Shown: piece after piece, positions 17,498-34,478 of the stretch
How positions within the stretch are numbered: the first letter of the stretch is position 1
How the letters are laid out: each line of letters opens with the position of its first letter
Assembly: GCA_965247115.1 (NCBI GenBank)
Contig: CBDFGR010000003.1
Location: 2,176,001-2,240,000, forward strand
Origin: Myxococcota bacterium
Lineage (GTDB): Bacteria > Myxococcota_A > UBA9160 > SZUA-336
DNA length: 64,000 nt
Direction of reading: 5' to 3'
The notes under the pieces: generated by a model
Seen by the model: only the letters and a program-made list of their open reading frames with translations
The model's database searches: none
What the model was told of the DNA's origin: nothing
Program-made: the position numbers and the translations under genes

Positions 17498-19042
17498 GTG
17501 AGCGCACGGATCGTCTATGGCGGAGCCGCAGCTCTTCTCGTCTGCGCGTTGCTGGGTGTGCGCTCCGCGGGCCAGAGCAGCTACGCCATATGGATCGAAG
17601 ACTCGCTGCCGCTGCTAATCCACGAGCCCGATGCGGCGACGTCGCGCGACGGAGAGCGCCTGCCAGTGGTCGTGCTCTCGCACGGATCCCTCGGCAACAG
17701 CAGCTTGTTGAACTCGTTGGCGCGGCGCCTGAGTGCTCAGGGATTCGCGGTGATCACCTTCGACTCTCGCGGTCAAGGGCGTAGCCGGCGCCCTTTCGAG
17801 CGAAGTGTGGGCTTTGTGCCCGAAGGCCTGATCGAGGACTTCGACCAGGCCGTGCTCTGGGCGCGTTCGCAGGCGCGCTACGATGGTCAGCGCCTCGCCG
17901 TAGGAGGCCACGGAACGGGCGCGGCCGGCGCGCTCGCCTACGCGGCGCGGCGCGATCCCGGAGTGGCCGCCGTCGTTGCCATCTCCGGTAGCGCTTCTCT
18001 GGACGGGCCCTACACGCCACCGAACGTGCTGTTACTCTGGGGGGAGCGTGCCCCGTCAGCTCTGCGCGCGCTCTCACGGCAGCGCGGGGCCGAGCTGATC
18101 TCTGCGAACCGGGCCGTGCTCGAGCGTACCTACGGCAGCTTCGAGCGGGGTACGGCCGTGCGCCTGGCCGAGGTGGAGGGAGCGAACCATCTCTCCGTTC
18201 TTTACGCTCAGGGCGCCGCCTCCGAGATCTCGAGCTGGTTGGCCGGCGCGCTGACACCCACGCCCGACCTCGGGCCTGTCCCCCGGGACGCGTCGCTTCT
18301 CTGGGCGCTTGTCGGGATGTTGGGCGCGCTCGCTCTGCTCTTGGGAATGCCGCAGGCCGTCGCACCGCTCGCGCCGCGCGTCGCACTTCCCGCGGTGACA
18401 CATCCCTGGCAGCGGCTCGGGCTCGTAGCCGCTGCTCTGGCCGCCAGTACGGTGCTGCTCGTCGGCGCCGACCAGGTTGCGGGCAGCGCGCCTCTCGCCG
18501 TCTTCCCGCTCTCCGGCGCTCGTGACGTGCTGGGCTTCTTCGCCATCGCGGGAGTCGGTCTGCTCGCCTACGCCGCCAGGGATACGCGCGTGCGCGCCGA
18601 AGGGCTTCGAGACTGGCGCACCTGGACCAGCGCTGGACTCATTCTGGGTTTCATCTATGTCAGCATCGGGGTGCTGAGCCAGCCGTTCTGGGATCCGTTG
18701 CTGAGCTCCCGAAGGCTATTGCCCTGGGCCGCTGCCACGCTGCTGTTGCTGCCCTGGTTCGGCGTCACCGAGTGGCTGCTCCGCGGCCCCCTGCTCGCTC
18801 AGGCCTGGCTCCCCGCTGCGGCCCGCCTCCTGACCCTGGCCGCCCTCGCGTCCGCAGCGTTCTTCGGCCTGGTCCCCCGCGCACTTCTCGCCGCCCTCGT
18901 CCCGCTCGTTCTCCTCTTCGCCATCTTCGAGGCCCTGGCCTTCCGCCTCTCCCGTCAGCTCCCGAACCCCTGGCTCTCCGCCCTCGTCCAATCCGCCTGG
19001 TTCGCCTGGCTCCTAGCTGCATTCTTCCCCATCGAGGGCTAG
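17498..19042 (+). CDS. Alpha/beta hydrolase-fold protein with C-terminal multi-TM domain
   Basis: VVLSHG, FDSRGQG, GHGTG (no Ser at the nucleophile elbow), hydrophobic C-terminal half. Confidence 0.7.
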   Translation: MSARIVYGGAAALLVCALLGVRSAGQSSYAIWIEDSLPLLIHEPDAATSRDGERLPVVVLSHGSLGNSSLLNSLARRLSAQGFAVITFDSRGQGRSRRPFERSVGFVPEGLIEDFDQAVLWARSQARYDGQRLAVGGHGTGAAGALAYAARRDPGVAAVVAISGSASLDGPYTPPNVLLLWGERAPSALRALSRQRGAELISANRAVLERTYGSFERGTAVRLAEVEGANHLSVLYAQGAASEISSWLAGALTPTPDLGPVPRDASLLWALVGMLGALALLLGMPQAVAPLAPRVALPAVTHPWQRLGLVAAALAASTVLLVGADQVAGSAPLAVFPLSGARDVLGFFAIAGVGLLAYAARDTRVRAEGLRDWRTWTSAGLILGFIYVSIGVLSQPFWDPLLSSRRLLPWAAATLLLLPWFGVTEWLLRGPLLAQAWLPAAARLLTLAALASAAFFGLVPRALLAALVPLVLLFAIFEALAFRLSRQLPNPWLSALVQSAWFAWLLAAFFPIEG

Positions 19043-19063
19043 GAACGCGTAGGGGCCCCCAGT

Positions 19064-19220
19064 CCGAACTTAGGGACGGTCCTTAATCCGAACTTATTCC
19101 GCGCGAGACGACCGCAGCGACGCCTGGATGAACGAGTGTGCCCACGAGCCCCGCCAGAGTGACCAGAAGTTCCGACTTTCGGCCAAACAAGTTCGGATTG
19201 AGGACCGTCCCCAAGTTCGG
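19064..19220 (+). mobile_element. Non-autonomous REPIN/MITE-like element (family A)
   Basis: Same terminal IRs as the RAYT locus around a ~90-bp core homologous to 45751-45905 (inverted). Confidence 0.85.
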
Positions 19221-19226
19221 ATGGAT

Positions 19227-19297
19227 GCGGCGCGCGCAGCGAAGGGCGAAGCCCTGAGCGGAGGTGGGTGGCCGCGGGCGCCCTCGGCCGGGTCCCA
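19227..19297 (+). repeat. Multi-hairpin repeat, family B (partial copy)
   Basis: GCGGCGCGCGCAGCGAAGGGCGAAGCCCTGAGCGGAGGTGGGTGG...GGGTCCCA matches the copies at 31407, 31594 and 45613. Confidence 0.85.
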
Positions 19298-19306
19298 TGG
19301 GGTGCG

Positions 19307-19741
19307 CTACAAGACCTGACCGTGAGAGAACTCGCAGGTGTTGCCGCTGGGGTCGCGAACCATGGCGAAGTAGCCCACGATGGGTCCCGCATCGGTGGGG
19401 CCGTACTTGAGGCGACCCTCGCTTCGCGCGAGTGCGGCGATCTCGTCAACCTCTTCTCTCGAGCTCACGTCGAAGCCGAAGTGGTCCGTCGCGTTGGGCT
19501 CTGGCAGCGACTCGTGTGGCATCTCGAGCACGACGATCACGAAGTCGGGATCATCGCTCCGGTGGGCGAGCCAGGCTACATGGATGCCGTCGTCCTCGCG
19601 CTCGTGCACGATACGCAGTGCTGCGTAGCGTTGGTAGAAGTCGAGCGACTCCTGCATGCGGGTCGTTCGAATCGCAATATGGGTCATCCGCGCCGGCCGC
19701 TTCAGCGCGACGGACCGTGCTGCCTGCTTGCCCTCACTCAC
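19307..19741 (-). CDS. VOC/glyoxalase family protein
   Basis: THIAI, DHFGF and RDPSGNTCEF motifs. Confidence 0.85.
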   Translation of the reverse strand: MSEGKQAARSVALKRPARMTHIAIRTTRMQESLDFYQRYAALRIVHEREDDGIHVAWLAHRSDDPDFVIVVLEMPHESLPEPNATDHFGFDVSSREEVDEIAALARSEGRLKYGPTDAGPIVGYFAMVRDPSGNTCEFSHGQVL

Positions 19742-20876
19742 GTGGTACCTTCTCGCCGCGCTCAACATCGGTGAGGCGGAGCATGGGCCGGAGCGGGCTC
19801 ATGCCGTCGTGATTCCAGTCGATCGGGGGCAGCTGCATGCGGCCTAGCGGACAGATGCGCGACGCTCCCGAAGCGGTGGCGATCGCCGCGAGTTCCATGT
19901 CACTCTCCCATCCGCTGTGTCCAATGGAGGATAGGTGAGGTGAGAGCTCCTGGCAGCGTTCTCCGAGCTCGGCCACGCTCCGGATGGCAACGACGCGCGC
20001 GAACCGAAGCGCACCAGGTGACGGCAGCGGACCGCCAGCGTCGTATGCGACGGTCCAGCTCGTAGAGCCTTCGGACACCCAGACTCGGCTCTCCGGTCGC
20101 AGCGCGGCAAACGCACGCTGCTCGCGGATGTGCGCCTCTTCGGCCAGGTCGAGCGAGGGGCGGGGAAGCGTGCTTTCGCAGTCAGCGAGGGCGCGCGCCA
20201 GATCGGCGGCGAAGGACTCGGCTCGCCCCGCTGGCTCGTCCAGCAACAGCGCATAGGCGGGCGATAGACAGCCGCGGCCGTCCCAGAGCGATAGGTCTAG
20301 CGCCAGGTCCACTGCGGCCTCCGCAACACTCACATGTGTACCGATCGCGGCGAGCGAGAGCTTGTGCCCATAGCCCACGAACGGCAGCGTGGTTGGCACG
20401 CGGCGGCGGACCGCCTCGAGCGTCTCGTCGCTCCCGTGAGCGACCAGGCAGTCGACCTCTCGGAGCAGCTCGTCCTCCGGCGCGATCCGTATCACCTCGG
20501 ACAGTCCGGCCTCGGCCAACGTATCCCTGAACAGGGCAGGGGTCAGCGGATCGCTCGAAGATGGCTTTGCCCAGACCGCCGAGCCGGTCAGGAGCGGCAG
20601 CAGCAAGGCGGCGAAGGTTGCCGTCGGAACGGAGCCGGCCAGCCAGACGCCGGTCAGGCCAGGGACCCAGGCAGGCTCGACGAGCTCGCGCTCGCGCAGT
20701 GCCGCGAGGACATCGCGCGTCCAGTGCTCGACTCCACTGCGCACGCCGAGCGTGATGACCTCGGGCGAGAAGCCGCCGTGCTCGTCCGCGAGCCGGCGCA
20801 ACCAGGGCGAATCGGGGGCGCGCCACAGCTCGAGCGCGCGATCCAGCCGACGGACGAGCTCGGTGGGGGCGAGCAT
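19734..20876 (-). CDS. LuxC-like acyl-CoA reductase
   Basis: AGSVP, KPSS, HGSDET, YGHKLS, GRGCLSP (catalytic Cys), RICPLGRMQ and HDG. Confidence 0.8.
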   Translation of the reverse strand: MLAPTELVRRLDRALELWRAPDSPWLRRLADEHGGFSPEVITLGVRSGVEHWTRDVLAALRERELVEPAWVPGLTGVWLAGSVPTATFAALLLPLLTGSAVWAKPSSSDPLTPALFRDTLAEAGLSEVIRIAPEDELLREVDCLVAHGSDETLEAVRRRVPTTLPFVGYGHKLSLAAIGTHVSVAEAAVDLALDLSLWDGRGCLSPAYALLLDEPAGRAESFAADLARALADCESTLPRPSLDLAEEAHIREQRAFAALRPESRVWVSEGSTSWTVAYDAGGPLPSPGALRFARVVAIRSVAELGERCQELSPHLSSIGHSGWESDMELAAIATASGASRICPLGRMQLPPIDWNHDGMSPLRPMLRLTDVERGEKVPRE

Positions 20877-20878
20877 GC

Positions 20879-21967
20879 TCAGCGACCCGCGAATAGGGCG
20901 TCGGCAGCGATCGAGCAACCGCGCTCCTCAGCGCCCTGGAGGCGCCCCAGTACCTCGAAACCGTCGTCGCTGCGCAGCCCGAGGTCCGAGGTCTGGACTG
21001 CGAGCACCGAGCCGGTGTTTGCGAGATCGTAGTGCACGAGCACGCCAGTCTCCCCGGCGGGCACCTCCTGCCAGGTCGCGGGATCGAGCACGCGCGTGCG
21101 GACCCAGGGTGGAACGCGCTTCGTTTGCGTGGGTCGCCCCGTCAGGAGCGTAGCCTCGTAGAACTGGCTGCCCAGCTCGCACATGCCGTACTGGTTGACG
21201 ATTGCCGCCATCGGAACACCGAGTGCGGTCGAGATGCCGGTGTGGAGCTCCACCCTCGTCAGCTCGCGGGAGCGGCCCTTGAAGCCGCCCGTCTCCATGA
21301 CGCGCGATCCCTCGGGGAGTGCCAGGCGCACGCCGCGCCTCTCGAGCTCGTCGAGCAGGTGGACGAAGGAGAACGCGGTACCCACGACGGCGGCCGGCCC
21401 ATCCAGCTTGCCCAGGTCCGCGATGGCTCGCTCGGGATCCCAGCCGTGCTGTGTGACGTAGAAGGACGGCTCTCCTCGGCCGAGCTCGCGGGCCGCGCGC
21501 TCGAACATGTAGGACAGGGAGGAATCCGGGGCTTCGGTTGCGGACGGAGCCAGGACACCAAAGCGCAGGCGTTCGGCACCCCGGCACACGTAGGTTCCGA
21601 ACGTTGCCAGCAGCGAGGCGTCGTAGAGCTCGAGCGTGTCCAGATGGAGAGCGCCGCGTGCGGCGCTCGAGCTTCCGCTGGTCCGGAAGGTGCGGACCTC
21701 CTGCTCCTCGGGGAAGGTCGCGAGTCGCGCCTGCTTGAAGGCCCCGGTCGGAACCGCGGGGATGTCGGACCAGTGCTCGATGTTGGCTGGGCTCCGGCCA
21801 AAGGAGTCGCAGAGCACCCGGTACGCCTCGCCTGACTCGTACTGGTGCGCGAAGAGCTCGAGTGCGAGCGTGCCAAAGCGCCTGTCCGCGGCCGCGCGAT
21901 CGGTGACTGAGTCGACGCCCTCCGCGATCCAGGCCAGGATGCGCCGCTCGACGGCTCTCCGGCTCAT
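20879..21967 (-). CDS. LuxE-like acyl-protein synthetase
   Basis: FRTSGSS, METGGFKGR, YGMCELGSQ and C-terminal RGCS. Confidence 0.85.
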   Translation of the reverse strand: MSRRAVERRILAWIAEGVDSVTDRAAADRRFGTLALELFAHQYESGEAYRVLCDSFGRSPANIEHWSDIPAVPTGAFKQARLATFPEEQEVRTFRTSGSSSAARGALHLDTLELYDASLLATFGTYVCRGAERLRFGVLAPSATEAPDSSLSYMFERAARELGRGEPSFYVTQHGWDPERAIADLGKLDGPAAVVGTAFSFVHLLDELERRGVRLALPEGSRVMETGGFKGRSRELTRVELHTGISTALGVPMAAIVNQYGMCELGSQFYEATLLTGRPTQTKRVPPWVRTRVLDPATWQEVPAGETGVLVHYDLANTGSVLAVQTSDLGLRSDDGFEVLGRLQGAEERGCSIAADALFAGR

Positions 21968-23223
21968 GCGTGCAGGTGCGCCACCAGTCGATCCGTGGCG
22001 CGGTCGAGGAGCTCCTCGGAGATCGTCAGAGGCGGGGTCAGGGAGAGCACGCGACCCTCGACCCCCTCGGCGAGCAAGATCCAGCCTTCGCTGAGCATTG
22101 CCGCGACCACGCGCTGTGCGACAGCGGCGGTGTCGAGCTCGATCCCGAGCATGAGCCCGCGGCCGCGCACTTCGCGGACGCACGGCGCGTTGCCCAGCTC
22201 TCTGTGCAGCCGTTCGAGCAGGCGCGCGCCAACCCGGGTCGCACGCTGCGGGAGCCGGTCGCGCTCCAGGATCTCGAGCACCGCAGCGGCGACCCTGCAG
22301 CCGACGGGATTGCCGAGGTGGGTGCTCGTGTGGACGGCCTCTCCCGACGACGCTCTCCAGGCGCGCATGACGTGCTCGCGACCAACGCAGGCGGAGATGG
22401 GAAAGCCGTTGCCAAGTCCCTTTCCCAGCGCCACGACGTCGGGTAAGACGCCTTCGTGCTCGCAGGCCAGCCAGGAGCCCGCTCGACCTAATCCTGTGTA
22501 TACCTCGTCCACGACAAGCAGCGTGCGGGACCCATCGGCAAGCTCCCGCAGCTCGCGCAGAAAGCCCTGCGGAGGAACCACGCAGCCGCCACGCCCCTGG
22601 ATCGGCTCTACCAGGATGGCTCCCACCTCCCCGGCAGCGAGCGCCTCACGCACGGCCTTCGCATCGCCGTAGGGGACGAAGCGGGTGCGGCCGGGAAGCC
22701 GCGCCTCGAAGGGGGCGCGAAACAGCCGGCGGTGTGTCGTGTCGAGGGCGCCGAAGCCGAGGCCGTGATAGGCGCCCTCGAATGCGATGACGTCGGGGCG
22801 TCCTGTTGCGACAAGAGCCGTCTTGAGCGCGGATTCCACTGCGTCGGAGCCCGACGAGGAGAGGATCGCGCAGCCCAGGTCTCCCGGCAGGATGCGGGTC
22901 AGCGCCTCGAGCAGCTCGACCTTGACCCTTGCCGGGTACACGTCGCCCATGGCGTGGGGCAGCTCACCTGCCTGCGCGCCCCAGACCGTCGTGATGGCAG
23001 GGTGCGCGTGTCCGAGCGCTGCAACACCGAAGCCGGACAGCAAGTCCACGTAGCGATTCCCGTCCACGTCGATGACATTGGCGCCGCTCGCGCGCTCCCA
23101 GAAGATGGGTCCGTCCGAGAGGCACGTGACTTCGGGGCACTCCACCTGTGCGAGCCGAACCCCCAGGGCCTTCGAGCGGGGTCCCGGTACGGGTGTGCAG
23201 ATCTCGGGAAGGAGGTCGTTCAC
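21964..23223 (-). CDS. Class III PLP aminotransferase
   Basis: DVDGNRYVD, SGSDAVE, EPIQGRGG, DEVYTGLGR and LGKGLGNG motifs. Confidence 0.9.
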   Translation of the reverse strand: MNDLLPEICTPVPGPRSKALGVRLAQVECPEVTCLSDGPIFWERASGANVIDVDGNRYVDLLSGFGVAALGHAHPAITTVWGAQAGELPHAMGDVYPARVKVELLEALTRILPGDLGCAILSSSGSDAVESALKTALVATGRPDVIAFEGAYHGLGFGALDTTHRRLFRAPFEARLPGRTRFVPYGDAKAVREALAAGEVGAILVEPIQGRGGCVVPPQGFLRELRELADGSRTLLVVDEVYTGLGRAGSWLACEHEGVLPDVVALGKGLGNGFPISACVGREHVMRAWRASSGEAVHTSTHLGNPVGCRVAAAVLEILERDRLPQRATRVGARLLERLHRELGNAPCVREVRGRGLMLGIELDTAAVAQRVVAAMLSEGWILLAEGVEGRVLSLTPPLTISEELLDRATDRLVAHLHA

Positions 23224-26753: not shown

Positions 26754-27569
26754 TCAGCGCAGCCCGAGAATCAGCTTCCCCTCGAGCTCTGCCAGGTCGA
26801 TCCGATAGGTTCGTTGCAACGCGCGGTCCACGCTGTTCGTCTGGGTGATGCGTTTCAGCAGGCGTCCAAGCGAGTCCGCACCCCGCTGCCTGACGAGCAG
26901 CTCGACCGCGGCATAGGACTCGAGGTAGGCGAGCCGCGCCCTCTCCGACTCGAGGTGTCCGAAGCTCGGGGGCCCGAGCTCTGCGAGCGGGATCCACTGA
27001 TCCTTCGCGTGTGCGTCGCGAAGGGCCGCGTACTCGCCGAAGCTTGGAGTGCGCCTGCCGAGTGCGAGACGTTCGAAGTACCCTGCGATTCCCTCGTTCA
27101 GCCAGCCGGGGAAGCTCCCGCGCGGGGATGCGGCGTCGAGCGTAGCGTGCACGAACTCGTGATGGAGCGTGCCTGTCAGCTCCGCGCTGACATTCGTCGC
27201 ACCGCGGACATGGATCACCCCATCGTAGAAGCCTGCGGCCTGGAATCGGAACAGGCCATCGTACTGGCGCCCGAAGAGCTCGGGATCCCAGACAACCACT
27301 TGCACCGCGCGCGGGGGAGCGACGCCCAGGCTGCTCCGCACGTCGCGGTAGGCGTCTTCCAGAATGTCGAGAACGCGTTGCTCGAAACGTCGGGACCCGT
27401 TCCACCCCGTGTAGCGGTCGATTCCGACATCCTGATAGAGCACGAAGTGAAGAGAGCGGCGCTCACTGAACTCACCGTCCGCTCCGCCCCCTGCAGCGAT
27501 CGACCCCGGGCTCGCACAGATCAGGATTGTCACCAGGCTCCCAGCAACCTGACAGGCGGCTCGATGCAT
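26754..27569 (-). CDS. Peptidase MA-like zinc metalloprotease
   Basis: HEFVH and PGWLNEGIAGY motifs. Confidence 0.78.
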   Translation of the reverse strand: MHRAACQVAGSLVTILICASPGSIAAGGGADGEFSERRSLHFVLYQDVGIDRYTGWNGSRRFEQRVLDILEDAYRDVRSSLGVAPPRAVQVVVWDPELFGRQYDGLFRFQAAGFYDGVIHVRGATNVSAELTGTLHHEFVHATLDAASPRGSFPGWLNEGIAGYFERLALGRRTPSFGEYAALRDAHAKDQWIPLAELGPPSFGHLESERARLAYLESYAAVELLVRQRGADSLGRLLKRITQTNSVDRALQRTYRIDLAELEGKLILGLR

Positions 27570-27704
27570 CGCGTCACGATAGCAGGATCCCTCGGGCGCT
27601 CTTGCTTTTGCGCAGGTCGATGGTATTGACGACTGCCGCGCATGAAGCGCGTCGAATCGGTGTCGCGCCGGAGCGCAACCAATCAGGGGAGAGGAATCAC
27701 AGCA

Positions 27705-27932
27705 ATGGCAGCCAGGAAGAAGGCGGCAGGACGGAAAAAGGCGGGGCGGAAGTCGGCCGCAGGGGGGCCCATGATCATCTCGAAGTCACGCGTCAAGGCG
27801 GCGGCGAAGAAGTGCAACGTGGGAGCTGCCTTCTATGATGCGCTGGAAGACCGGGTTCGGGAGTCGATCGCGAGCGCCGAGGATCGGGCCATCGCGAACG
27901 GCCGCAAGACCCTGCGTCCGCAGGACGTTTGA
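27705..27932 (+). CDS. Bacterial histone-fold protein with basic N-terminal tail
   Basis: GGAGAGG SD. Core MIISKSRVK...ALEDRVRESIASAEDRAIANGRKTLRPQDV carries the RKTxxxxD histone L2/alpha3 motif. Confidence 0.85.
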   Translation: MAARKKAAGRKKAGRKSAAGGPMIISKSRVKAAAKKCNVGAAFYDALEDRVRESIASAEDRAIANGRKTLRPQDV

Positions 27933-27988
27933 CGGCCCGGGCGTAGCCCTGGACTCCGCGGGCGGTCTCGCCCGGCGGCGCGGCCAAG

Positions 27989-28023
27989 AAAAAAGCCGGC
28001 GGACCCCTCAGGGTCCGCCGGCT
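27989..28023 (-). terminator. Intrinsic terminator (minus strand; possibly bidirectional)
   Basis: 13-bp stem AGCCGGCGGACCC/GGGTCCGCCGGCT followed by a T-run on the minus strand. Confidence 0.8.
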
Positions 28024-28044
28024 CTCCCACGGACGAGCGCTGCT

Positions 28045-28212
28045 CTATTGCGCAGGGATTACAGGGAATGCAGGAACTGCGCGGAGATGCGCGGCCTCGC
28101 GGGGTTCGAGCACCGAGCCGACCGGGAGAGGGGCTGGGGCGGTCTCACACGTCCACGGGAGTCCGTCGCGGCTAGGTCTCGCGCGAAACTGGAGGGGCTC
28201 TCTGATCATCAT
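28045..28212 (-). other. Candidate 55-aa small ORF or sRNA under ECF control
   Basis: Lies between an ECF-type promoter and the terminator; translates MMIREPLQFRARPSRDGLPWTCETAPAPLPVGSVLEPREAAHLRAVPAFPVIPAQ. Confidence 0.4.
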
Positions 28213-28241
28213 GGACTGTGTACCTGGTCCTCTATCAGAGG

Positions 28242-28304
28242 TACGATTCGCAGTGTTGCGCGGTTACGGCGGGGGGGAGTAACCGAGGGCGAGGCACGGA
28301 CGTA
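28242..28304. promoter_or_regulatory. Two back-to-back ECF sigma promoters, GTAACC-N16-CGTA
   Basis: Plus strand: GTAACC 28279-28284 and CGTA 28301-28304. Minus strand: GTAACC 28267-28262 and CGTA 28245-28242. Both spacers are 16 nt. Confidence 0.7.
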
Positions 28305-28873
28305 TGAGCGATAGCGGGGAGGGCGACGTTCCTCCTGAGTCCTCGTGGTGTGAGCTCATGGAGGCCGCTCAGGGCGGAGACCGCGCTGCCTATGAGCGTC
28401 TGCTGCTCGCGATCCTTCCCGTGCTTCGTCGGCTGGTTTTCGCGCGTCTCGGAGATCCCGCCGGCGTGGAGGATGTGGTTCAGAACGTGCTCCTCTCCAT
28501 CCATCGCGCGCGGCACACCTACCAGCCGGGCCGGCCCTTCGGACCCTGGATGCGCGCGATCGCGCGCAACGCGGTCGTGGACTCCCAGCGGCAGCGGAAC
28601 GTGCGCGTGCGCCGCGAGCAGCCCCTGTCCGAGGTCGAGGAGCTCCCGGACCCGGCGGCCCCCGCTCCGGAGTCGGGGCTCTCGGACCCGCTGCGCCGAG
28701 CCCTGGAGTCCCTTCCGGCTGGCCAGAGGCAGGCCGTGGAGCTGATCCAACTTCGCGAGCTCTCCGTCGCAGAGGCGGCCAAGCAGGCTGGGATCTCACC
28801 GGGGGCGCTGAAGGTGCGCGCCCATCGGGGCTACCGTGCGTTGCGCGCATTGCTCTCGGGACAGACTCGGTGA
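28304..28873 (+). CDS. ECF sigma-70 factor
   Basis: GDRAAYERLL, EDVVQ and ALKVRAHRG motifs (regions 2 and 4). Confidence 0.9.
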   Translation: MSDSGEGDVPPESSWCELMEAAQGGDRAAYERLLLAILPVLRRLVFARLGDPAGVEDVVQNVLLSIHRARHTYQPGRPFGPWMRAIARNAVVDSQRQRNVRVRREQPLSEVEELPDPAAPAPESGLSDPLRRALESLPAGQRQAVELIQLRELSVAEAAKQAGISPGALKVRAHRGYRALRALLSGQTR

Positions 28874-33168: not shown

Positions 33169-33888
33169 CTAGACCTGCAGCAGGATCGCGGTGACGTTGT
33201 CGGGGCTGCCGAGCTCGTTGGCGCGGGCGATGAGCTTGTTGATGGCGGCGTCGAGATCGGGTTCGGACGCGAGCTCGGCGATCTCCGCAGCGGGCACCAG
33301 GTCGTGCAGGCCGTCCGTCGAGAGCAGGAGGCGGGCGCCGCGCGCGATTCGCGCCTGGAGCAGCTCCGGCTCGACCGAGCCCTGTACGCCGACGGCGCGC
33401 GTGATGACGTTGCGATCCGGGTGCTGCCAGGCCTCCGCTTCGCTGATCACCCCGCTCTTTTGGAGGATCGCCACGAGTGTGTGGTCGGTCGTGAGTTGCT
33501 TCAGGTTCCCATCCTTCAGCCGGTACACGCGTGTATCGCCGACGTGCGAGATCACCGCGGTGCGACCGCGGAACTTGAGTGCGGTGAGCGTCGTGCCCAT
33601 GCCGCGCAGATCCCGTTCCGACGCGGCGCGATTCACCGCCTCGTTCGCCTCGAGGACCGCGTGACAGAGAATGGGGCCCTCGTCCTTGATGCGGCGGGCT
33701 GGCAGACGGCTGCGGTACACGGAGATCACGGTCTCTACGGCCACGGCGCTGGCGACCTCGCCGGCAGCGTGGCCGCCCATCCCGTCAGCGATCACGAACA
33801 GATCGAGCTCGGTGATAGCGTGCGCGGCGTCCTCGTTGTTGTCGCGCTGGATCCCCGTATCGGAGTGCAGCGCGTAAGGAACGCTCAT
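33169..33888 (-). CDS. PP2C/Stp1 Ser/Thr phosphatase
   Basis: NED, ADGMGGH, GMGTT, HVGD, DGL and DN motifs. Confidence 0.92.
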   Translation of the reverse strand: MSVPYALHSDTGIQRDNNEDAAHAITELDLFVIADGMGGHAAGEVASAVAVETVISVYRSRLPARRIKDEGPILCHAVLEANEAVNRAASERDLRGMGTTLTALKFRGRTAVISHVGDTRVYRLKDGNLKQLTTDHTLVAILQKSGVISEAEAWQHPDRNVITRAVGVQGSVEPELLQARIARGARLLLSTDGLHDLVPAAEIAELASEPDLDAAINKLIARANELGSPDNVTAILLQV

Positions 33889-34478
33889 GCCGGCTCTCCG
33901 TTGCGGGTCAGCGGCTTCGGCCGCAGCAGGGCGTACTGGATGTGATCCAGGTAGCGACCGTTGACGAACTCGACCTCGCGGGCGATGCCCTCTCGCTCGA
34001 AGCCGAGCTTGTCGACCACCCGCTGGCTCGCATGGTTCTCCAGCGCCACGTGCGCCTCGAGACGATGAAGGTGGTAGACCTGGAAGCCACGGTCGACAAG
34101 GGCGCCGACGGCCTCGGTGGCGATCCCCTTGCCCCAGCTGGACCGACGAATCCAGTAGCCGACCCCGGCGGAGCGTCGGATCCAGTCGATCCGATGCAGA
34201 CTGGTGATGCCGAGCAGGTCTCCCTTGTGTAGATCCTCGATGATGAACTCGTAGGCTCCCCGCCGGGCCAGCGTCGCGCGCGCCCCGCGCAGGTAGCGAC
34301 GCGTGTCTGCGCGTCGGTGTCCATCGTGCGCCCAGGGTAGCCACTGCACCAGGTCCGGCAGGGTCTCCATGATGCCTTCGTGCAGCGCGCCGACATCCGT
34401 GCGCCTGGGAGCGCGCAGCCTGAGACGGCGCGTGACGAGCTCACCTACCGCCGCTTCATCCGCAACAAAAACGCTCAC
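33885..34478 (-). CDS. RimJ/RimL-type GNAT acetyltransferase
   Basis: VGYWI, GKGIATEA and NHASQRVVDKLGFEREG motifs. Confidence 0.88.
   Translation of the reverse strand: MSVFVADEAAVGELVTRRLRLRAPRRTDVGALHEGIMETLPDLVQWLPWAHDGHRRADTRRYLRGARATLARRGAYEFIIEDLHKGDLLGITSLHRIDWIRRSAGVGYWIRRSSWGKGIATEAVGALVDRGFQVYHLHRLEAHVALENHASQRVVDKLGFEREGIAREVEFVNGRYLDHIQYALLRPKPLTRNGEPA

Follow-up and report, generated by a model that had tools for sequence, protein, structure and literature searches.

A tailed alpha3 histone, of the face-to-face type by sequence and monomer fold, near-universal in one uncultured class of Myxococcota

The window analysed here, a 64,000-nucleotide stretch of a Myxococcota genome, contains a stand-alone gene for a 75-aa histone that, from its sequence and predicted monomer fold, is of the face-to-face (FtF) type like HLp and HTkC and not of the Bd0055 dimer type, and whose basic N-terminal tail is very probably translated. 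The gene is near-universally present in one uncultured Myxococcota class: of 201 genomes sampled from the class of the host, 188 gave matches, nearly all single-copy, and among the 118 good ones the figure was 116; in a sample of the phylum 21 of 22 class members matched, against 4 of 99 others, weakly. In the reading that we regard as probable, the protein is a stand-alone FtF alpha3 histone, for which we infer a ring that would wrap DNA and tails that would add electrostatic grip. The gene, its signals, and its immediate neighbors are as follows (window positions).

26754-27569, minus strand: Peptidase_MA_2 (HExxH) gene, divergent from the histone gene across a gap of 135 bp
27685..27695, plus strand: ribosome-binding site AGGGGAGAGGA, purine-rich, 9 nt 5' of the first ATG, duplex energy -11.5 kcal/mol
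27705-27932, plus strand: histone ORF, 75 aa, from translation of the window
27705..27770, plus strand: N-terminal tail MAARKKAAGRKKAGRKSAAGGP, 22 codons, with 5 Lys, 3 Arg, and zero acidic residues, predicted to be disordered
27771..27932, plus strand: predicted 53-aa alpha3 histone fold and stop codon, starting at Met (Leu in many homologs), from profile, model, and structure matches
27885..27929, plus strand: putative FtF signature, with R61 and N65 (dimer-dimer contacts) and R67-K68-T69 plus D74 (RxTxxxxD, RD clamp), from the register with HLp
27994..28023, strand not given: perfect 13-bp hairpin with a 4-nt loop and an A-run 5' of it, z-score -6.35
From 28304, plus strand: ECF sigma/NrsF pair

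The translation agrees with the ORF originally described, a basic tail followed by a ~53-aa core ending in NGRKTLRPQDV, and the strong Shine-Dalgarno (SD) sequence claimed for the first ATG is present. The gene stands alone, with the divergent peptidase-MA-like gene on its 5' side and the ECF sigma/NrsF pair on its 3' side. None of 200 shuffles was as stable as the hairpin at 27994..28023, which is probably a terminator; a promoter and terminator scan of 27400-28320 returned 0 sites and did not call this hairpin. The histone is encoded once in its own genome, where the profile gave no second match at E up to 1; a search there for a DUF1931 double histone was also negative, with a control that matched in 3 of 14 genomes. 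Elsewhere in the window, on the minus strand at 19734-23223, a cluster of acyl-CoA reductase, acyl-protein synthetase, and aminotransferase genes was recognized by eye from translations and includes what looks like a LuxC/LuxE-like pair.

Across 80 homologous loci, the recurrent close neighbors were the peptidase-MA gene (21), an RluA-type pseudouridine synthase (19), and an FAD oxidoreductase (17); the first of these was the most constant and, in an overlapping set of short loci, was present at 16 of 29. A tree on 52 columns was too short to resolve origins, and the submitters' phylum labels were scattered over it.

Searches of Pfam and NCBIfam gave zero family matches for the histone protein at E up to 1, and the core sequence compared with the PDB matched HTkC (PDB 9F2C) at E 1.1e-4. 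A 66-sequence profile, with members picked from the query and the 120 homologs listed of 241, ranked HTkC first (1.2e-10), then HLp (2.3e-5), then HBb/Bd0055 (0.058), which supplies the HMM search proposed with the original prediction. The AlphaFold2 monomer has pLDDT values of 44-47 at residues 1-20 and 89-97 thereafter, with helices at 27-33 and 41-64 and an alpha3 of one turn (3 residues), the truncation that marks alpha3 prokaryotic histones. In structure comparison, this model came closest to HLp, with Z 7.0 and an rmsd of 1.1 across 54 residues, followed by HTkC at Z 6.8 and HBb at Z 6.5, values of Z that amount to a tie and, being below 8, are modest for a small helical domain; eukaryotic and nucleosomal folds scored Z <= 4.8, and the top three in Foldseek were again HLp, HTkC, and HBb, all at E >= 0.001. 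Profile, monomer model, and structure matches thus agree that the fold is that of a histone, as first proposed. The full-length alpha2 and long alpha3 of nucleosomal (HMf-type) and eukaryotic cores are absent from the 53-aa core. Among wider profile relatives, we also observed tandem double-alpha3 histones of ~120 aa without basic tails (P0154, P0160, P0162, P0164, P0169, and P0174).

The tails were compared at 81 DNA loci, namely the present one and the best 80 among 183 loci that had been confirmed in GTDB genomes. They range from 8 to 28 residues (median 18), consist of 31% Lys, 30% Ala, and 13% Gly, and have a median net charge of +5, with at least +4 at 63 of the 81 loci; core length, in turn, is equal at all 81. 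Among the 120 protein homologs listed (of 241), 119 have a basic tail, and the suggested check of tail conservation therefore has a clear outcome: the sequence of the tail is free to vary, and its charge is kept. Even the charge is dispensable in some lineages, as three of the 81 tails (L021, L024, and L034) are short and barely basic; in L024 and L034 an 11-residue non-basic N-terminus (MAQGTTG...) replaces the Lys-rich tail, a natural loss of tail charge that makes these two handy natural controls.

Eukaryotic H3 is modified at ARTK and ARKS motifs, and the ARK and RKS of the present tail had been read as sites of this type. However, RKS occurs in only 3 of 73 unique tails, which is chance level (shuffle mean 1.1, with the count reached by 58 of 500 shuffles), ARKS in 1 and ARTK in 0; among 119 protein homologs, the counts are 12 for RKS, 5 for ARKS, and 0 for ARTK. 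For RK[ST] there is a mild enrichment (8 of 73 tails, with 2.3 expected; 2 of 500 shuffles). The conserved element is the start, M[AG]x[KR]K, found in 64 of the 73 unique tails as against 3.5 in shuffles, and in 113 of the 119 protein homologs; at position 4, R and K are interchangeable, and 23 of the 73 have MxARK. The conserved ARTK and ARKS of a eukaryotic H3 tail are therefore lacking, and ARK is part of a MAARKK start common to unrelated proteins, so that the H3 reading of these motifs falls away: judged by its sequence, the tail resembles H3 superficially, in composition only, and is no H3 mimic. The further suggestion that the tail is convergent with eukaryotic tails was judged likely.

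A genome-wide ORF scan recovered 7 ORFs with a start of the MAARKK type and an SD, or 13 under a looser filter. Besides the histone, four ORFs begin with MA[AT]R[KR]K, two of them H1-like, one ParB/Noc-like, and one SnoaL-like.

G000:C1:104329-104631 (L113:1001-1303), plus strand: 100-aa ORF of nearly all RKKA/RKKG repeats, SD -15.2
G000:C1:178367-178738 (L114:2365-2739), minus strand: 124-aa protein of RKK repeats, with below-cut-off matches to the HC2 (Pfam) and H1-like (NCBIfam) models
G000:C3:749582-750241 (L115:1001-1663), plus strand: SnoaL/NTF2-like protein, 220 aa
G000:C3:1885904-1886911 (L116:1001-2011), plus strand: ParB/Noc-like protein, 336 aa, with a MAARKK-type tail; weak match, E 0.003-0.013

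The 100-aa ORF, which has no match in Pfam or NCBIfam, resembles a DNA-condensing protein of the H1-like or protamine-like kind that stands alone, and on the opposite strand an IHF/HU gene lies ~0.5 kb from the 124-aa gene. A sequence translating as THLRSGLRPSLRAP is intergenic both beside the latter gene (L114, about 2750-2900) and in the window at 19039-19270, which suggests a dispersed intergenic repeat. The ParB/Noc-like protein matches in the N-terminal domain and has orthologs in 18 of 29 relatives; the gene directly before it is presumably selD. The SnoaL-like protein begins with a long basic tail and ends in an acidic C-terminus rich in Pro and Ala, and its gene is present in 17 of 17 same-family genomes; it joins a small-molecule-binding fold to a DNA-tether-like tail. 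Among the 29 relatives, 17 of 18 ParB-like and 18 of 19 SnoaL-like orthologs have at least six Lys/Arg in the first 20 residues, counts obtained with queries that included the tails and after one SnoaL locus, for which no start was found, had been dropped. These sequence comparisons mark the tail as a Lys/Arg/Ala low-complexity module typical of the lineage, which places it on other proteins as well. There is a parallel in Actinobacteria, where PAKK/KAAK tails are reported on HupB, Ku, and TopA, and the HupB tail is described as required for DNA binding (PMC5676037).

The strong conservation of the M[AG]x[KR]K start would also suit a tail that serves as a regulatory platform, on which dedicated enzymes would add and remove acetyl, methyl, or phosphoryl groups at specific lysines or the serine and so switch chromatin as in eukaryotes and Asgard archaea, a role that we nevertheless consider unlikely. 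Modification of such regions has been reported, by acetylation in mycobacterial HupB (PMC6640162) and on Asgard histone tails (bioRxiv 10.64898/2026.07.02.735847), and the genome holds two SET-domain genes, one HDAC-family gene, and one sirtuin gene, as well as GNAT and PP2C genes near the histone.

33885-34478: RimL/RimJ-like GNAT gene, 5-6.5 kb from the histone gene
To 33891: Stp1-type PP2C gene, 5-6.5 kb from the histone gene
G000:C3:2002714-2002998 (L082): SET-domain gene, unlinked to the histone gene
G000:C2:1226099-1226353 (L083): SET-domain gene, unlinked to the histone gene

Past its first residues, however, the tail has no conserved site, the conserved start is common to non-histone proteins, and bacteria that have no histones commonly possess HDAC and sirtuin genes (9/14 and 10/14 control genomes). 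The GNAT and PP2C genes lie within ~12 kb of the histone gene in 13 (one a fragment) and 12 of 17 same-family genomes, the rest being on other short contigs; but the same 12 genomes also have UvrD, an unrelated control, on the contig of the histone, so the proximity reads as inherited family-level gene order. In 12 genomes of two other families, a comparison limited by fragmented assemblies, PP2C (6) and UvrD (8) matches were obtained, none on the histone's contig, and GNAT was not found with the query used; the tailed histone persists in these genomes. A narrower test with 4-kb flanks (PP2C at 0 and GNAT at 1 of 80 loci) was set aside, as its flanks did not reach across the 5 kb in question and whole-genome searches reversed its result within the family. 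The original caution that GNAT and PP2C genes 5-6 kb away are not demonstrably linked to the histone is thereby upheld. Bromodomain and chromodomain searches of the genome gave no match, and neither did their controls; from the sequence, no dedicated writer or reader of the tail is evident. We are just as doubtful of a class-wide histone chromatin in which an enzymatically modified M-A-A-[RK]-K-K end switches wrapping or condensation, with the same tag as a nucleoid address of the histone and of the two H1-like, the ParB/Noc-like, and the SnoaL-like proteins. If true, this would represent the first bacterial histone-tail modification system, independent of those in Asgard archaea and eukaryotes.

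Because the structure scores for HLp, HTkC, and HBb are tied, the assignment to a subfamily rests on residues. Schwab et al. (2024, PMC11390915) describe FtF histones as ring tetramers held by R48 and N52, residues given as absent from bacterial dimers, and in HTkC the R45A variant is reported to act as a dimer; Hu et al. (2025, PMC12701072) name R49, N53, R55, and the terminal F63 in HLp. In the present protein, R61, N65, R67, T69, D74, and the terminal V75 are in register with R49, N53, R55, T57, D62, and F63 of HLp, and the chain runs R67-K68-T69...D74-V75-stop, so that the RxTxxxxD motif is present and the chain ends one residue past the clamp Asp. Equivalents of R61, N65, R67, T69, and D74 occur in all 120 homologs listed (of 241), a protein list used here because the counts of N, R, T, and D from the 81 DNA loci were imposed by the search pattern. 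At the tetramer positions, the 66-sequence profile alignment shows R/N in HLp, as here, and S/D in HBb. The conserved lysines at the start of alpha1, the paired end of the helices, that characterize FtF histones are likewise found: S26, K27, R29, and K31 are invariant in the 66 sequences and align with ASK of HLp and KSK of HTkC. Alignment gaps indicate that alpha1 and L1 are ~three residues shorter than in HLp and HTkC, which could change DNA wrapping.

A DNA-bending dimer in the style of HBb/Bd0055, with the tail adding affinity, would fit a monomer fold equally near to HBb and HLp (Z 6.5 vs. 7.0) and a host lineage, Myxococcota_A, that is listed among the hosts of bacterial dimers (Schwab et al., 2024, PMC11390915); it is nonetheless highly improbable, as all of the listed homologs retain the residues that dimer-class histones lack by definition, the chain end matches the requirement for the ring contact, and the profile gives E 0.058 for HBb against 1e-10 for HTkC. 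The likeness to short-alpha3 histones that had been proposed accordingly stands, and the subfamily can be narrowed to the FtF type of HLp, with its residues in register, as opposed to the Bd0055 type, R61 and N65 being present.

The reading of the protein as a tailed histone depends on translation from the first ATG. With a generic anti-SD sequence, duplex energies are -11.5 kcal/mol for 27705, -9.9 for the internal ATG at 27771, and -2.9 for an upstream in-frame ATG at 27642; the value at 27771 comes from a G-run at 3-nt spacing and falls to -5.3 without the last 5 nt. The comparison of SDs across loci is biased, as the tail start was picked as the best-scoring candidate. CTG can, in rare cases, serve as a start codon. 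The codon at the tail-core junction is CTC at 30, CTG at 26, ATG at 23, and TTG at 2 of the 81 loci, leaving 56 loci without ATG, GTG, or TTG at this position. The closest relative among the best loci (L001, Myxococcota bacterium; 89% identical, and the same sequence as L098 of the same-genus genome G022) retains the first SD (-11.3) but no longer has a G-run 5' of the internal ATG (-2.2); its tail differs from the present one by 5 synonymous and 4 non-synonymous codon changes, and the 20 codons upstream by 3 and 10. The tail is Lys-rich in a genome of 66% GC, and the frame is kept through length changes. An alternative 96-aa reading from the ATG at 27642 was rejected on account of its SD, which reaches only -2.9, and of a stop codon that interrupts this frame in the closest relative, 12 codons 5' of the start of the tail.

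RNA-library contigs matched the histone gene at >=99% identity in four runs from two studies, one labeled sponge metagenome. Contigs from three of the four span the SD and tail (27643-27855, 27646-27805, and 27661-27981), a weak hint that the tail is real, and contigs of the two studies stop at 27981-27982, a weak hint of a terminator; the runs had been found with the histone gene itself, the libraries possibly contain DNA and also yielded contigs on neighboring genes, and the contigs give neither start, strand, nor level. Contigs X1 and X2 have G for T at 27864, which changes Ser54 to Ala, the residue of most close homologs, and is probably a strain difference.

With CTC or CTG at 56 of 81 junctions, and with the first ribosome-binding site alone preserved in the same-genus relative, translation of the basic tail is very probable. 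Initiation at the internal Met (27771), with the tail as a gene-calling artefact, is what the original prediction named as its refutation and is extremely unlikely: the G-run before 27771, the database entry P0017 (98% identical, and the one exception among the 120 listed homologs), which is called from the internal Met, and the longer annotated form of HLp, which was judged wrong (PMC12701072), speak for it, against the junction codons, the loss of the internal SD in L001, the Lys-rich composition and preserved frame, and, weakly, the RNA contigs over the first SD and tail. A minor tailless form may be made from 27771.

Among known systems, HLp of Leptospira perolatii (PDB 9QT0-9QT2) shares the short alpha2, the one-turn alpha3, the equivalents of R49/N53/R55/T57/D62, and a single histone gene per genome, at 32% identity over the structural match given above. 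It differs in being 63 aa long with ~7 unresolved N-terminal residues, those aligned just before the fold not being basic, whereas the present tail has 22 aa with 8 Lys/Arg; in addition, Leptospira is reported to be without HU (PMC12701072), whereas the present genome has two HU/IHF genes, and the HLp gene lies near smc, which is absent from the recurrent neighbors listed here. HTkC of Thermococcus kodakarensis (PDB 9F2C) is the best sequence match (43% identity over 54 aligned residues) and has the same tetramer Arg, but is archaeal, 59 aa long, described as tailless, and bears His where the clamp Asp would be (PMC11390915; bioRxiv 10.64898/2025.12.06.692711). HBb/Bd0055 (PDB 8CMP, 8FVX; PMC10627809) shares the fold of the alpha3 superfamily and the RKT motif, but differs at the positions of the tetramer Arg and Asn, which are S and D there; it bends DNA in dimeric form and is described without a long basic tail. 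The H1-like modules of Chlamydia Hc2 (Pfam HC2) and the HupB C-terminus (PAKK/KAAK; PMC5676037) are likewise Lys/Ala/Arg low-complexity regions of variable length reused within a lineage, whereas the present module is short, N-terminal, and on a true histone fold.

The nearest counterparts are the tailed bacterial FtF histones of Myxococcota, Planctomycetota, and Bdellovibrionota (PMC11390915), which also have a positive tail without conserved sequence on an FtF core and from which no difference was found in what that paper reports; at 75 aa, the protein falls within the 51-127 aa given for bacterial FtF histones in its source data. Schwab et al. (2024, PMC11390915) state that most bacterial FtF histones carry positive "H3-like" tails and name Myxococcota, so that the basic tail as such is not novel, and the present clade may already be in the supplementary figures of that paper. 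The statement that short-alpha3 bacterial histones lack basic tails accordingly holds for HLp, whose residues before the fold are not basic, and fails for most bacterial FtF histones; Hocher et al. (PMC10627809) and the introduction of Hu et al. (PMC12701072) call tails mostly absent in prokaryotes, which explains the surprise expressed in the original prediction. In the open-access literature searched, we found no study on the function or modification of such tails.

For the probable reading, a stand-alone tailed FtF histone, HLp and HTkC suggest how the protein would act: monomers would dimerize via alpha2, two dimers would shut into a ring via R61, N65, R67, and the C-terminal carboxylate, and ~50-60 bp of DNA would be wrapped round the ring without sequence preference, the wrapped length being about 50-60 bp in the papers on each relative (PMC12701072; bioRxiv 10.64898/2025.12.06.692711). 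The four disordered tails would give each tetramer 32 positive charges beyond those of the core, which has a net charge of +4 per chain, and, judging by composition, could work as H1-like electrostatic arms that raise DNA affinity, reach to linker or neighboring DNA, and favor compaction; lysine acetylation could tune them by charge. Given the two HU/IHF genes and two H1-like ORFs of the genome, the histone need not be the main DNA packager.

HLp and HTkC, the FtF histones characterized in the papers cited, are without a long basic tail, and the 75-aa protein is a convenient reagent for tail function, with versus without its tail, although the existence of such tails has already been published. 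For the class itself, the histone gene is a near-universal marker and points to a class-specific histone chromatin.
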